A stretch of DNA of 5,860 nt from IMG/VR virus record IMGVR_UViG_3300029121_000098; one strand, written 5' to 3'. The notes beneath the pieces were generated by a model, which worked only from the letters and a program-made list of their open reading frames with translations, searched no databases and was not told where the DNA came from. This document shows, piece by piece, positions 2,034 to 5,860 of this stretch; position 1 is the first letter of the stretch, and each line of letters begins with the position of its first letter. This stretch comes from a virus (Duplodnaviria > Heunggongvirae > Uroviricota > Caudoviricetes). The position numbers and the translations under genes are program-made.

Positions 2034-2408
2034 ATGCTCATAGATTTGGTTTTACCTTACCCGCCGACGGTGAACACTTACTGGCGACGCCGTGGCAGCA
2101 CATATTTTATCTCGGAGGAGGGAAAGCGTTATCGCCGGGCTGTGGCGCTTATTGTTCGCCAGCAGCGGCTGAAATTAAGCCTGTCCGGAAGGCTGGCGAT
2201 AAAGGTGATTGCAGAGCCACCGGATAAGCGTCGTCGCGACCTGGACAATATCCTGAAAGCACCGCTGGATGCGCTGACGCATGCGGGAGTGTTAATGGAC
2301 GATGAGCAGTTTGATGAAATCAATATCGTTCGTGGTCAGCCAGTATCTGGTGGACGTATGGGGGTGAAGATTTACCCCATAATGCATGAAGAGCAGGTCA
2401 AAAAATGA
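2034..2408 (+). CDS. rusA: RusA-family crossover junction endodeoxyribonuclease (Holliday junction resolvase), 124 aa
   Basis: AGAGGTG Shine-Dalgarno upstream. The acidic core PDKRRRDLDNILKAPLDALTHAGVLMDDEQ aligns with the [30 protein letters not shown] region of E. coli RusA as recalled. Position between the nin-like genes and Q is typical. Confidence 0.82.
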   Translation: MLIDLVLPYPPTVNTYWRRRGSTYFISEEGKRYRRAVALIVRQQRLKLSLSGRLAIKVIAEPPDKRRRDLDNILKAPLDALTHAGVLMDDEQFDEINIVRGQPVSGGRMGVKIYPIMHEEQVKK

Positions 2409-3226
2409 AACTGGAAGATTTACCGAAATACTACTCCCCAAAATCCCCTTGCCTGACCGATGCATCGGCTTCAACGTCAAAAGATGCGCTGAGTATCACT
2501 GATGTGATGGCCGCGCAGGGCATGACACAGAATCGGGCTGAGATGGGGTTTTCTGCGTTCCTGGGGAAAATGGGCATCAGTATGAATGACAGGGCACGGG
2601 CAACAGAATTACTGGCAGATTATGCACTCAGTCGGTGCGATCGTGTGGCGGCGTTGAGAAAACTTCCGGCAGAAATAAAACCGGTAGTGATGCGCATTAT
2701 GGCTTCGTACGCTTTTGAGGATTATGCCCGCAGCGCAGCGAGTAAAAAGCAGTGCCCTTGTTGCTATGGGGAAAAATTTATTGAAAGCGTAGTTTTTACA
2801 AACAAGGTCCAGTATCCGGATGGTAAGCCGCCGGTATGGGCAAAGTGTACGAAAGGTGTGTATCCGTCTTACTGGGAAGAATGGAAAAAAGTCAGGGAGG
2901 TGGTAAAAGTTGCCTGTCCGGAGTGTGGCGGAAAGGGTGAGGTTTCCACCGTCTGTAAGGATTGCCGTGGGCGTGGTGTCGCCATTCACCGTGAAGAGTC
3001 GGTAAAACGTGGTATGCCTGTTATCAGAGACTGCCAGCGTTGTGGTGGTCGTGGCTATGAAAGACTACCATCAACGGAGGCATTTAATGCTATATGCGAG
3101 GTGACAAACCAGATAACACGCGCGTCATGGGAAAAAACAGTTAAGAAATTCTATGATGCGCTGGTGACCCGGTTTGATATTGAAGAAGCATGGGCTGAGC
3201 GGCAGTTAAAAAAGGTAACTAGGTAA
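2405..3226 (+). CDS. Q: Lambda-type late antiterminator Q, 273 aa, with an enlarged Cys-rich insertion
   Basis: ATGA overlap with the rusA stop. Blocks KYYSPKSP, TDVMAAQGMTQNRAEMGFSAFLGK, ASYAFEDYARSAA, CQRCGGRGYERLP and SWEKTVKKFYDALV...VTR align with lambda Q (KFHSPKSP, TDVMAAMGMAQSQAGFGMAAFCGK, ATFAYADYCRSAA, CGRCKGVGYSRMP, TWSRTVKPLYDALV...VTR) as I recall it. Sits immediately upstream of a pR'-like promoter. Confidence 0.88.
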   Translation: MKLEDLPKYYSPKSPCLTDASASTSKDALSITDVMAAQGMTQNRAEMGFSAFLGKMGISMNDRARATELLADYALSRCDRVAALRKLPAEIKPVVMRIMASYAFEDYARSAASKKQCPCCYGEKFIESVVFTNKVQYPDGKPPVWAKCTKGVYPSYWEEWKKVREVVKVACPECGGKGEVSTVCKDCRGRGVAIHREESVKRGMPVIRDCQRCGGRGYERLPSTEAFNAICEVTNQITRASWEKTVKKFYDALVTRFDIEEAWAERQLKKVTR

Positions 3227-3275: not shown

Positions 3276-3307
3276 TTTTTATGCCTGACGTTAGAAGAGT
3301 TTCTACA

Positions 3308-3332
3308 ACCCGCCGCCGAGCGGGTTTTTTAT
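3308..3332 (+). terminator. tR'-like rho-independent terminator
   Basis: ACCCGC-CGCCGA-GCGGGT hairpin followed by TTTTTTATT, about 45-65 nt downstream of the predicted start site. Confidence 0.6.
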
Positions 3333-3369: not shown

Positions 3370-3445
3370 GGCCCTTTAGCTCAGTGGTGAGAGCGAGCGA
3401 CTCATAATCGCCAGGTCGCTGGTTCAAATCCAGCAAGGGCCACCA
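3370..3445 (+). tRNA. ileZ: tRNA-Ile2 (anticodon CAT, presumably lysidine-modified to read AUA)
   Basis: Cloverleaf fits: acceptor GGCCCTT/AAGGGCC, D-arm GCTC...GAGC, anticodon loop CTCATAA, T-arm CGCTGG-TTCAAAT-CCAGC, encoded CCA. Near-identical to E. coli ileX as recalled; the C4:G69/C5:G68 acceptor pairs fit an Ile2 (TilS substrate) rather than an elongator Met. Confidence 0.85.
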
Positions 3446-3528
3446 TCACAAACCGCCATTAGCTTATCAGGAAGAGCAGACGACACGATAACAGGGTTGT
3501 TGGTGCGGGGGCGGGTCCCCGATGGCGG

Positions 3529-3605
3529 TCGTTGTTAGCTCAGCCGGACAGAGCAATTGCCTTCTAAGCAATCGGTCACTGGTTCGAATCCAGTACAGCG
3601 CGCCA
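3529..3605 (+). tRNA. argO: tRNA-Arg (anticodon UCU, reads AGA)
   Basis: D-arm GCTC-AGCCGGACA-GAGC, anticodon stem ATTGC/GCAAT with loop CTTCTAA, T-arm ACTGG-TTCGAAT-CCAGT, encoded CCA. The 1:72 acceptor pair is T:C in my fold, so the 5' boundary is uncertain by 1-2 nt. Confidence 0.75.
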
Positions 3606-3715
3606 TATTCATTCTTCCAGATTCCTTCCGGCAGAGCCTTATACTGGAATATACCTGGCTCAGGATATTGTTGAAAACATAATATGTTTGTCAAAAATAA
3701 AAGTTCTGTTAAGTA

Positions 3716-4069
3716 TTGATTGAGTGTTTGTTATACGGTCTAATGGTTTTTTCAGCATTAAATATTTATCATTCATATGGTGTGGGTAGAGTGAATATTG
3801 ATGAGGCGTCGGGGTGTTTCATCCTTAGGCAGCGTATTGATATAGTCAATGCAGCACGAGCAAAGGCCTTCAGCCGTTTGACAGTTTTGTTCTGTGCTCC
3901 TGATCGTCTTTCGGGAAGAGACGTTATTATTCTGAATAGTGATGCTATACAGAGGGTTTGCGATGAGTTCATGGTTGCTAATTCAGAATTATTTGCTCTT
4001 GTTCAGGAGTACAACAGAATAGCCAGGACCTGTGGTATGGATGAACTTCGGATTACTCATCTGGGGTAG
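3716..4069 (+). CDS. Hypothetical 117-aa ORF (TTG start, no clear RBS); possibly a gene remnant
   Basis: Only ORF longer than 100 aa in the roughly 1-kb AT-rich stretch after the tRNAs; same strand as all flanking genes. The first in-frame ATG (3743) also lacks a Shine-Dalgarno. No family recognised. Confidence 0.3.
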   Translation: MIECLLYGLMVFSALNIYHSYGVGRVNIDEASGCFILRQRIDIVNAARAKAFSRLTVLFCAPDRLSGRDVIILNSDAIQRVCDEFMVANSELFALVQEYNRIARTCGMDELRITHLG

Positions 4070-4533
4070 ATACATATCTGGATTATCACCTGTTACGGTA
4101 AAAAGTGATTGCTTACTGTTTTTGTGAATGGCATTGCAGCAGCCGGATAATATCAGTGCTGGCTGACGGTGTGCTGGTGGCGGGTGTGGTGGTTGTTGCT
4201 TTCCCGTTGCTGAAAAAGAAAACGCCAGACTGTTAGCCGGGTATCAGTTAGCGGGAGAAATTTTTAAATACTTCACAATTCAGGCGGTTGACTGTTCTCT
4301 GGTTTGCGGGGAGTTTGTTAAAAGAAACTGGCATGGTGAATCCCCCTGTGCGGAGGGGCAATCAGCGAGTAGGTATATGGGATAATCGCGGATTCAGGTG
4401 CTGGTACTGAATTCACCCGGCACCATGCACTTCAATAGATTCTCTCCACATTATGGATATTCTTTCAGAATATCCCACGCAGACTTTGTGTAAATGTTAA
4501 CAAATGTGCGTTTTATTTGATCTGATTCGCTGT

Positions 4534-4563
4534 TTGAGCGTCCAAAACAACGGTATATATAAT
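4534..4563 (+). promoter_or_regulatory. Candidate sigma70 promoter for the TolA-like lipoprotein genes
   Basis: -35 TTGAGC (4534-4539), 18-nt spacer, consensus -10 TATAAT (4558-4563), about 30 nt upstream of the 4593 start codon. Confidence 0.4.
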
Positions 4564-4592
4564 CCTTTACTATATGACATATGTGAGGAAAA

Positions 4593-5021
4593 ATGGGTTT
4601 TCGTAGCGCATCAATTCTTACGTTGATTATTAGTGGGATTATTATCGGGTGCACTGATGCTGTATCGACAAATTATCATGACCGTACATCATATTACTCC
4701 GATAAAGCAATAGAGACACAGTATGTGAGTTCATCTGAACGTACTTCTGATGTTAGTGAGGATATCCGTCTGTATGCCCATCAAATCAAGAGCGCCATCG
4801 AAAAACAGTTCGGGGATGCGAGTAAGTATTCAGGAAAAGAGTGTACACTGAGAATGCATATGGCCCCGAATGGCCTTCTACTGGAGGTTAAAAGAGAAAG
4901 TGGAGACCTCGATTTATGTCGTGAAGCGATGAATGCGATAAAGAATGCTGATATACCTGCCCCCCCTTCGCCGGAAGTATATAAAGTATTTCAAAATGGG
5001 GTGCTGGATTTTAAACCCTGA
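4593..5021 (+). CDS. Lipoprotein with C-terminal TolA domain III-like fold, 142 aa
   Basis: GAGGA Shine-Dalgarno before the ATG. Signal peptide MGFRSASILTLIISGIIIG with lipobox Cys (IIGC), then a Ser/Thr/Tyr-rich linker. The C-terminus IKSAIEKQFGDASKYSGKECTLRMHMAPNGLLLEVKRESGDLDLCREAMNAIKNADIPAPPSPEVYKVFQNGVLDFKP aligns almost residue for residue with the E. coli TolA C-terminus (QIKSAIESKFYDASSYAGKTCTLRIKLAPDGMLLDIKPEGGDPALCQAALAAAKLAKIPKPPSQAVYEVFKNAPLDFKP) as I recall it, including both cysteines. Confidence 0.8.
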   Translation: MGFRSASILTLIISGIIIGCTDAVSTNYHDRTSYYSDKAIETQYVSSSERTSDVSEDIRLYAHQIKSAIEKQFGDASKYSGKECTLRMHMAPNGLLLEVKRESGDLDLCREAMNAIKNADIPAPPSPEVYKVFQNGVLDFKP

Positions 5022-5171
5022 TATTTATTGTTTTGTAATAAACGGTTTCGGCTTAGGTTTGTTCTGACACAACTACGGCACTGAGCTAAATTTAGCGGAT
5101 AGTCAGCTCTGAGCCAGTGGCGGACGTAACAACTACTATTGCTGAGATTTTAATGGATTGAGGAGCAAGAA

Positions 5172-5567
5172 GTGGGATTAAAGAAAATCGTTATGTTGAC
5201 TTTTTGGGTCGGTTTTGTTGCGGGATGCACACCTTTACACCCTTCAGATTGCCACAAAACTACTGCTACAGGTAGTTGCAGTTCAGGACGCTGGGATGAT
5301 CAGGATGAATGGGGGGCGCAAGCGCGGGGAATCAGAGCTGCAATTAATGCCAAACTTGATGAGCCGCATAACTGGAAAGGGAAAAAATGCAGGTTGCATA
5401 TGGAATTCTCTCAGGATGGCACGGCGTTAAAAATATCTACCAGTAATGGTGATAAAGCCTATTGCGAAGCGATAAAGTCCGCAGCTCATAAAGCCAAATT
5501 TCCGGCCTTCAACAATCCGGAAGTCTACAGAGATTTTCAGAAATCTGGCTTTGACATGCGAGGTTAG
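5172..5567 (+). CDS. Second, divergent TolA domain III-like lipoprotein (paralogue), 131 aa
   Basis: GTG start 6 nt after a GAGGAG Shine-Dalgarno. Signal peptide MGLKKIVMLTFWVGFVAG with lipobox Cys (VAGC). C-terminus GIRAAINAKL...GKKCRLHMEFSQDGTALKISTSNGDKAYCEAIKSAAHKAKFPAFNNPEVYRDFQ aligns with the upstream paralogue and with TolA domain III, keeping both cysteines. Confidence 0.75.
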   Translation: MGLKKIVMLTFWVGFVAGCTPLHPSDCHKTTATGSCSSGRWDDQDEWGAQARGIRAAINAKLDEPHNWKGKKCRLHMEFSQDGTALKISTSNGDKAYCEAIKSAAHKAKFPAFNNPEVYRDFQKSGFDMRG

Positions 5568-5692: not shown

Positions 5693-5716
5693 AGCTCGCT
5701 ACGGCGAGCTTTTTAT
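5693..5716 (+). terminator. Rho-independent terminator downstream of the lipoprotein pair
   Basis: AGCTCGC-TACG-GCGAGCT hairpin followed by TTTTAT. Confidence 0.5.
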
Positions 5717-5860
5717 ATTGCATCGTCTCCAGCATATATATCAATTAAGGCTCTGATTGATGTGTCTGGAAGCCTACACATAATAACTGGATTTGCCCCT
5801 ATATTTCCAGACATCTGTTATCACTTAACCCATTACAAGCCCGCTGCCGCAGATATTCCC

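Follow-up and report, generated by a model that had tools for sequence, protein, structure and literature searches.

TolA's C-terminal domain (TolA-III) serves as a co-receptor for the filamentous phages Ff, If1 and CTXphi, is the target of group A colicins, and is the point at which the Tol-Pal system exerts force on TolB; it is among the most intensively studied points of entry into bacteria. Small lipoproteins encoded by phages and plasmids, such as Cor (phi80, N15 and mEp167), Llp (T5) and TraT (F), are typically moron-like and shield their carriers from phages, colicins or conjugation, and Cor and Llp block the outer-membrane receptor FhuA. Here we describe two tandem genes, A and B, which encode predicted lipoproteins ending in a TolA-III domain and which may act as periplasmic decoys for TolA-binding invaders. 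They lie in a 5,860-nucleotide stretch of Caudoviricetes DNA (IMG/VR record IMGVR_UViG_3300029121_000098), referred to at its full length as the window. Cor, Llp and TraT are the nearest natural functional analogues of A and B, to which they show no kinship in sequence or fold. Cor and Llp act on a surface receptor, whereas TolA-III lipoproteins would mimic the periplasmic hub and titrate the translocation domain of the invader. Their nearest experimental analogue is the same domain exported without domains I and II in the laboratory, as an engineered, overexpressed and soluble periplasmic protein; A is natural, mobile and, by prediction, lipid-tethered. Levengood-Freyermuth, Click and Webster reportedly found in 1993 that exported soluble periplasmic TolA-III makes cells colicin tolerant and leaky, which would be a laboratory precedent for dominant-negative or decoy action.

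The ligand contacts of TolA-III have been mapped. Site 1 consists of strand beta3 and helix alpha1, where TolB, the N1 domain of the filamentous phage protein g3p (g3p-N1) and colicin N (ColN) each add a beta-strand; backbone hydrogen bonds of D418 and K420 are needed for binding of all three, and with the substitutions D418P or K420P all three are lost and a full tol phenotype results (PMC4339652). Site 2 consists of beta2 (L375-P380) together with K368, K379 and K396, and binds colicin A (ColA) (PMC3365938). Affinities for TolA-III are about 1 uM for ColN, 1.3 uM for ColA, 12-15 uM for g3p-N1 and 40 uM for TolB (PMC3365938, PMC4339652). The titles of PDB entries 2x9a and 1tol describe filamentous-phage g3p with TolA-III as co-receptor. 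The two genes and the parts of gene A are as follows (aa, amino acids).

4593-5021, plus strand: gene A, ATG start, 142 aa
4593-4652, plus strand: signal peptide of gene A (aa 1-19) and lipobox I-I-G-C with Cys20, passing PROSITE PS51257
4653-4751, plus strand: tether of gene A (aa 21-53, about 33 residues), Ser/Thr/Tyr-rich, predicted disordered
4752-5021, plus strand: TolA domain III of gene A (aa 54-142) and stop codon, alpha-beta-beta-alpha-alpha-beta, disulfide C84-C109, beta2 LLEVKR, beta3 VLDFKP
5172-5567, plus strand: gene B, second predicted TolA-III lipoprotein, 131 aa, GTG start, Pfam TolA_C E=1.3e-14

The C-terminal part of gene A closely resembles TolA-III in both sequence and modelled structure. 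Pfam TolA_C (PF06519) matches aa 49-140 (E=2.4e-23, 82.6 bits against a cutoff of 25), and a phmmer search of the PDB retrieves E. coli TolA-III (1s62, 3qdp, 2x9a, 1tol and chains of full-length cryo-EM structures) at E ~5e-28. Aligned without gaps to residues 334-421 of E. coli TolA, aa 55-142 are identical at 52 of 88 positions (59%); the C-terminal LDFKP is unchanged and both disulfide cysteines are retained, C84 and C109 corresponding to C363 and C388. An AlphaFold2 model built from a 25-sequence alignment has a predicted local distance difference test score (pLDDT) above 90 at aa 51-142 and below 50 at aa 13-50; a single-sequence model (pLDDT 56) was discarded. The retained model superposes on 2x9a_B, the TolA-III chain of the IF1-g3p complex, with a template modelling (TM) score of 0.96 and a root-mean-square deviation of 0.6 A over 88 residues, and also superposes on 1tol, 3qdp and 3qdr. 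Gene A is like the E. coli domain (1S62, 3QDP, 1TOL, 2X9A) in fold, topology and disulfide. At site 1, the segments QIKSAIE (alpha1, 343-349) and LDFKP (beta3, 417-421, including D418 and K420) are identical to those of TolA, and at site 2 LLDIKP is replaced by LLEVKR, with K379 and K396 kept, K368 changed to H and P380 to R. The TonB C-terminal family, a distant fold that also engages ligands by beta-strand augmentation, is matched far more weakly (Pfam TonB_2 E=5.6e-5; Foldseek TM ~0.45-0.56), and A and B stand clearly on the TolA side.

Gene A has translation and export signals of its own. An SD-like (Shine-Dalgarno) GAGGA at 4585-4589 lies ahead of the ATG, and the N-terminus passes the full PS51257 rule (a positively charged n-region, an uncharged h-region, a lipobox [LVI..][ASTVI..][GAS]-C, and the Cys at position 15-35), with R4 in the n-region, no charge in the h-region, and IIGC ending at Cys20 and followed by Thr at +2. 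Since Thr21 and not Asp occupies the +2 position, the established +2 rule predicts that the lipidated protein would be Lol-sorted to the outer membrane. This predicted cleavable signal stands in place of TolA domain I, and the Ala/Lys/Glu-rich helix of domain II is also absent from the 142-aa protein, which has the short disordered tether at aa 21-53 instead and would be non-energised. Full-length TolA hidden Markov models match gene A only over their last 94-98 positions (293-386 of 387 and 265-362 of 362). The score against NF007065 (107.8) fails the cutoff of 213, whereas TIGR02794 (tolA_full) is passed on the C-terminal domain alone (75.6 against 59.45). Because domains I and II were tested for and are absent, genes A and B are members of the TolA_C domain family and predicted lipoproteins, not TolA orthologues. 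The preliminary description of 4593-5021 had pointed to TolA-III likeness down to LDFKP and both cysteines, to an IIGC lipobox with Thr at +2, and to a lipoprotein signal in place of domains I and II, and had proposed profile and structure comparison as a check; the domain match, gapless alignment, superposition, signal rule and C-terminal model coverage bear it out on each count.

The Prokaryotic Genome Annotation Pipeline (PGAP) names gene A 'tolA' or 'tolA pseudogene missing N-terminus' (for example at 16771-17031 of locus L001, with gene B at 17203-17577), since a match to the C-terminal domain is sufficient to pass TIGR02794. The incomplete tolA calls in some genomes would suit a dead leftover, that is, a 3' fragment of tolA captured by a phage, but this origin is very improbable and is effectively refuted. 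Gene A has its own SD, ATG and complete lipoprotein signal, and TolA has no such signal; the open reading frame (ORF) is intact among subtypes that are 65-91% identical, with a ratio of nonsynonymous to synonymous substitution (dN/dS) of 0.23-0.36; the GC content at third codon positions (GC3), 36%, is at odds with a recent copy of a host gene; and the pseudogene label is an artefact of the cutoff. Recent capture from host tolA can be ruled out by the same GC3 value and by a roughly equal distance of gene A (55-60% identity) to every full-length TolA representative. Over the domain, pairwise dN/dS is 0.23-0.29 among A subtypes and 0.05-0.09 in B, and both genes are under purifying selection. 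The tether is the most variable segment in the A family, with an N-terminal dN of 0.23-0.42 against 0.11-0.12 in the domain.

Gene B starts 150 bp downstream of gene A; the preliminary description covered only the first of these tandem paralogues. TolA_C scores 54.6 bits on gene B, against the cutoff of 25; gene B is 29% identical to gene A, and its domain (aa 44-131) is 31% identical to E. coli TolA-III, with the disulfide Cys pair conserved. A GAGGAG SD at 5160-5165 lies six bases 5' of the GTG. From this start the protein passes PS51257, with lipobox V-A-G-C, Cys19 and Thr at +2, whereas from the internal ATG used by PGAP (5193) the charged n-region is lost and the rule is failed. Gene B has diverged at every mapped TolA contact, with ALKIST in beta2, E, S and H at the cation-pi positions and GFDMRG in beta3. 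The last 25 residues of B-type proteins are almost invariant across genera, and the tether (aa 20-43, 5229-5300), C-x-PLHPS-x-C-HKTTATGSC-SSGRWDDQDEWG, contains two extra cysteines and is near-invariant across six genera. Since the corresponding segment is the most variable part of the A family, the B tether may be a structured functional element and more than a passive linker.

Exported stand-alone TolA-III proteins form a diverse family of three lineages on mobile elements, a spread far beyond prophages that adds to the preliminary description. PHROGs places A and B together in phrog_5772, labelled 'unknown function'. A-type proteins (65-100% identical, ~142 aa) occur essentially in E. coli and Shigella prophages only, while B-type proteins, which fall into 368 clusters at 90% identity, are found in Escherichia, Shigella, Citrobacter, Enterobacter, Klebsiella, Raoultella and Serratia. 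PS51257 is passed by 24 of 29 full-length A-family members and by 114 of 119 B-family members; the lipobox Cys is followed by Thr or Ser in 22 of the 24 rule-passing A-family proteins and by Leu in the other two. The third lineage has the lipobox ITAC followed by S and the C-terminus ALDFRL, and is carried by ~310 plasmids, mostly Klebsiella IncF/IncR; one example, of 144 aa, is on the K. pneumoniae IncFIB/IncFII plasmid pMR0617ctx (L095 5217-6246; also L096). Its partner is a periplasmic thioredoxin-fold CxxC protein (signal peptide, CVYC motif), which may be a dedicated oxidoreductase for the TolA-III disulfide. All three lineages have conserved a lipobox in which the +2 residue is not Asp; in relatives this residue is Ala, Ser or Thr.

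B-type genes are frequent on plasmids, with 526 plasmid places in complete E. coli genomes and ~600 PLSDB plasmids carrying copies at 80-90% amino-acid identity, and 488 of the 917 plasmids with TolA-III lipoprotein genes are conjugative. On IncI1-type plasmids the B-type gene lies 68 nt 3' of the relaxase gene nikB and opposite trbCBA, and is probably co-transcribed with nikAB, as the short gap before it holds no promoter-like site. On pO157-type plasmids a B-type remnant adjoins a truncated nikB upstream of toxB. Loci L004 and L003 (6995-7426 in each) illustrate these plasmid settings. B-type genes also occupy chromosomal sites outside prophages: in more than 15 Enterobacter genomes a single site between a glutathione peroxidase gene and ridA, and in Serratia a fixed site adjoining nrdDG and a GmrSD/HEPN defence-type pair. 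A profile search of 1.84 billion representatives gave 636 proteins at E<=1e-3; among the best 150 of these, 92 proteins are of 170 aa or less, 59 of the 92 have a lipobox and several others a plain signal peptide. Soluble-type relatives with ordinary signal peptides include P0210, P0252 and P0312. The A-B cassette is present in 775 of 5,426 complete E. coli genomes (~14%), and any match in 1,340. Among deposited phage genomes (tblastn, n=50,697) only one, mEp460_ev081, has the cassette, and this is the same locus; a scan of IMG/VR with the family alignment found 80 copies, which are 99-100% identical and hold no diversity information.

Over the window, identity to a lambdoid E. coli prophage of the Qin/mEp460 type is 99.7%, in agreement with the prophage setting first proposed. 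Further features of the window are listed here.

2405-3226, plus strand: Q antiterminator gene (PGAP annotation of the identical locus)
3307-3326, plus strand: intrinsic terminator-like hairpin ~80 nt after Q, 7-bp stem with 5 GC pairs, T-run
3370-3445, plus strand: tRNA with CAT anticodon (PGAP: tRNA-Ile), one of two phage tRNA genes
3529-3605, plus strand: tRNA-Arg(TCT), the second phage tRNA gene
3716-4069, plus strand: 117-aa ORF, phrog_2873 (unknown function) E=2e-69, left unannotated by PGAP in the identical locus
4105-4236, plus strand: DUF3927 ORF, 43 aa, Pfam E=1.2e-26, phrog_1470 E=1.5e-11
4302-4482, plus strand: STnc100 sRNA element copy with degenerate 3' hairpin, Rfam RF02076, 84.9 bits (gathering score 47), full-length model
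4534-4563, plus strand: sigma-70 promoter-like site, TTGAGC-18-TATAAT, 10/12, ending 30 nt before the gene A ATG, best match in the region
5693-5710, plus strand: intrinsic terminator-like hairpin closing the A-B cassette, AGCTCGCTACGGCGAGCT followed by TTTTTAT
5789-5860, no strand assigned: IS2 end, 100% identical to IS2 ends (12,015 places)

The gene order of the locus is hokD, rem, a hypothetical gene, DUF968, rusA, Q, the first terminator-like hairpin, the tRNA with CAT anticodon, tRNA-Arg, an unknown ORF, DUF3927, the STnc100 element, gene A, gene B, the second terminator, the holin gene essD, ydfR, lysozyme and Rz. The cassette occupies the slot that stx takes in Stx phages, in which paired tRNA genes also lie upstream, as they do here (3370-3605). 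In other prophages a divergent A-type gene is found in the same slot, after Q and tRNAs and upstream of a nanS-p-type esterase gene and holin; in one such locus, L005, a methylase gene also precedes it. The hairpin after Q may be a tR'-type terminator read through by Q-modified polymerase. The block from 3700 to 5567 is AT-rich, gene A having 42% GC and gene B 46%, whereas Q, rusA and DUF968 have 49-54%, and A-type genes in unrelated loci are likewise trailed by terminator-like hairpins. Among the features expected of a moron, a terminator, low GC and variable presence are found; the promoter is a 10/12 consensus match that is not conserved between subtypes. This site, at 4534-4563, might permit expression in the lysogen without Q.

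In this genome IS2 is inserted ~80 nt after the cassette terminator and ahead of the holin gene, and an intact prophage, H1, departs from the window after 5788. The insertion sequence (IS) end is outside the A-B system, yet is relevant to the prophage's remaining capacity to lyse its host. IS421, IS3, ISEc8 or IS2 lie in the same stretch of other genomes, so that the lysis module is often disrupted with the TolA-like genes intact.

We consider it quite possible, close to an even call and better supported than any other reading, that A and B are outer-membrane-tethered decoys for TolA-binding invaders. As lipoproteins, they would be anchored at the outer membrane's inner face and hold TolA-III on a flexible tether of ~25-35 residues, where the translocation domains of colicins and g3p emerge. 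Lacking the domain I anchor and the helical domain II, they would neither couple to TolQR nor transmit force. Group A colicins, by their TolA-binding segments, or filamentous phage g3p, by its N1 domain, would be caught through beta-strand addition before contact with the genuine, energised TolA. This would halt import and save the lysogen or the plasmid host. Because the invaders bind TolA-III more tightly than the host partner TolB does, such a decoy could trap them at modest cost to Tol-Pal. Labour could be divided between the two genes: A closely mimics the TolA of E. coli, whereas B is divergent, of a pan-enterobacterial type, and perhaps has another ligand. The comparative evidence makes a decoy function, first raised in the preliminary description, more plausible without proving it, since contact segments are kept in A, conjugative plasmids carry the family, deposited phages almost never do, and selection is purifying. 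Carriage on IncI1 and IncF plasmids, retention in IS-disrupted prophages, rarity in deposited phages and the defence-type neighbourhood in Serratia are together consistent with an advantage for the cell or element that carries the genes, as against a lytic role. If1- and Ff-type filamentous phages use I- and F-pili as their primary receptors. More broadly, and with somewhat less assurance, we propose that stand-alone exported TolA-III may be a widespread, unrecognised class of hub-mimic defence on prophages, IncI1/IncF conjugative plasmids and some chromosomes, which would neutralise invaders in the periplasm with surface receptors unaltered, offset the filamentous-phage liability of a plasmid's own pili, and cover different invaders with A and B.

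Several observations weigh against decoys. Binding to TolA-III is mostly backbone-mediated, so that sequence conservation neither proves nor excludes a ligand. All ColA cation-pi lysines are gone from gene B, in which beta3 reads GFDMRG, and B may fail to bind E. coli TolA ligands. The slot directly upstream of holin, in a Q-dependent late operon, equally suits a lysis-associated role. Lysogenic expression is a prediction from the promoter-like site, a consensus match not conserved in other A subtypes, where the upstream DNA is non-homologous and gives only chance-level 9/12 matches. The Enterobacter chromosomal copies lie among housekeeping-type genes and could reflect a role in envelope physiology, and PADLOC has no model for a TolA-III lipoprotein family, which leaves it without independent defence annotation.

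Of the other functions considered, antagonism of Tol-Pal is the chief competitor of the decoy reading; it is unlikely, though it fits part of the evidence. The proteins would compete for the N-terminal TolA box of TolB and leave TolB on Pal, destabilising the outer membrane and helping lysis and release or the formation of vesicles. The late-region position just ahead of holin, endolysin and Rz, the stx slot, is what such a role would call for, and the TolB site D418/K420 of beta3 is kept in gene A; when the TolA-TolB interaction is blocked, cells show a full tol phenotype and their periplasm leaks (PMC4339652), and tol-pal mutants hypervesiculate (PMC7391070). However, the affinity of TolB for TolA-III is weak (~40 uM, as above), the prophage already encodes Rz-type spanin functions, and conjugative plasmids and fixed chromosomal loci carry the family without any lysis programme. 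The genes are also near-absent from deposited plaque-forming phage genomes and are retained where IS elements have struck the adjacent lysis region.

Two further explanations have a still lower probability, and we rank them equally. An accessory role in envelope homeostasis, in which outer-membrane TolA-III offers an extra dock for TolB or another partner and is spread as a mobile fitness gene, would account for the recurrent Enterobacter and fixed Serratia sites, for the very strong purifying selection on B, tether included, and for the pairing of the Klebsiella plasmid lineage with a thioredoxin-fold protein. Most E. coli genomes lack the gene, however, mobile elements dominate its distribution, force transduction is impossible without domains I and II, and no known Tol-Pal model requires such a protein (PMC7391070). 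Alternatively, the scaffold, especially that of B, may have been re-tuned to exclude something else, such as a component of conjugation, a bacteriocin made by other Enterobacterales, or a periplasmic component by way of which another phage's DNA enters. B differs from TolA at all mapped contacts, yet its C-terminal 25 residues and tether are near-invariant, and the tandem arrangement of A and B suggests non-redundant specificities; against this, no candidate ligand is identifiable and the classical sites are retained in gene A.

If the decoy reading is correct, a natural family of lipid-tethered TolA-III proteins would represent a new mode of protection, in which the periplasmic hub is mimicked and the surface receptor left unblocked. 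It would affect colicin- and phage-based antimicrobial strategies, explain in part the strain differences in sensitivity to colicins and filamentous phages, give conjugative plasmids a way of offsetting pilus-specific phages, and supply natural tools for perturbing Tol-Pal. Independently of function, the analysis corrects a systematic PGAP annotation error, both in the 'tolA' and 'tolA pseudogene' labels and in the start of gene B at 5193.

The absence of a characterised function, as the preliminary description had it, agrees with the papers searched, with the PHROGs label and with the lack of a PADLOC model. No description of natural stand-alone TolA-III proteins was found in the full texts searched, which mostly exclude subscription journals, so that an older report is possible, and a 2020 review of Tol-Pal makes no mention of prophages (PMC7391070). 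Papers on 'truncated TolA' proved unrelated, being a helix-deletion kinetics experiment and a co-conservation analysis. A reported 32-fold induction by ciprofloxacin of 'EDL933_2012 ... TolA' (PMC11125564) was also set aside as evidence for the family, since the paper's own table gives a tail fibre protein.

Some neighbouring features deserve mention. The DUF3927 ORF belongs to phrog_1470, whose database label is 'TciB-like inhibition of cell division or resistance to colicin', and it may be a second colicin-related moron beside the TolA-III genes; a literature search for TciB or DUF3927 returned nothing relevant. The 117-aa ORF at 3716-4069 has no Pfam match. STnc100 seems to recur in lambdoid late regions and may be a terminator or a module for recombination at the borders of morons: the related Stx-phage-like late region of L005 holds five copies, one directly 3' of the A-type gene and four in tandem (7468-7680; 9439-10396). 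The slot just upstream of hokD contains varied defence-type cargo, including an ABC-three-component system with DUF2326 (L001 9012-11556) and an AIPR-family protein (L097 48-1823), which suggests that it is a defence hot-spot.

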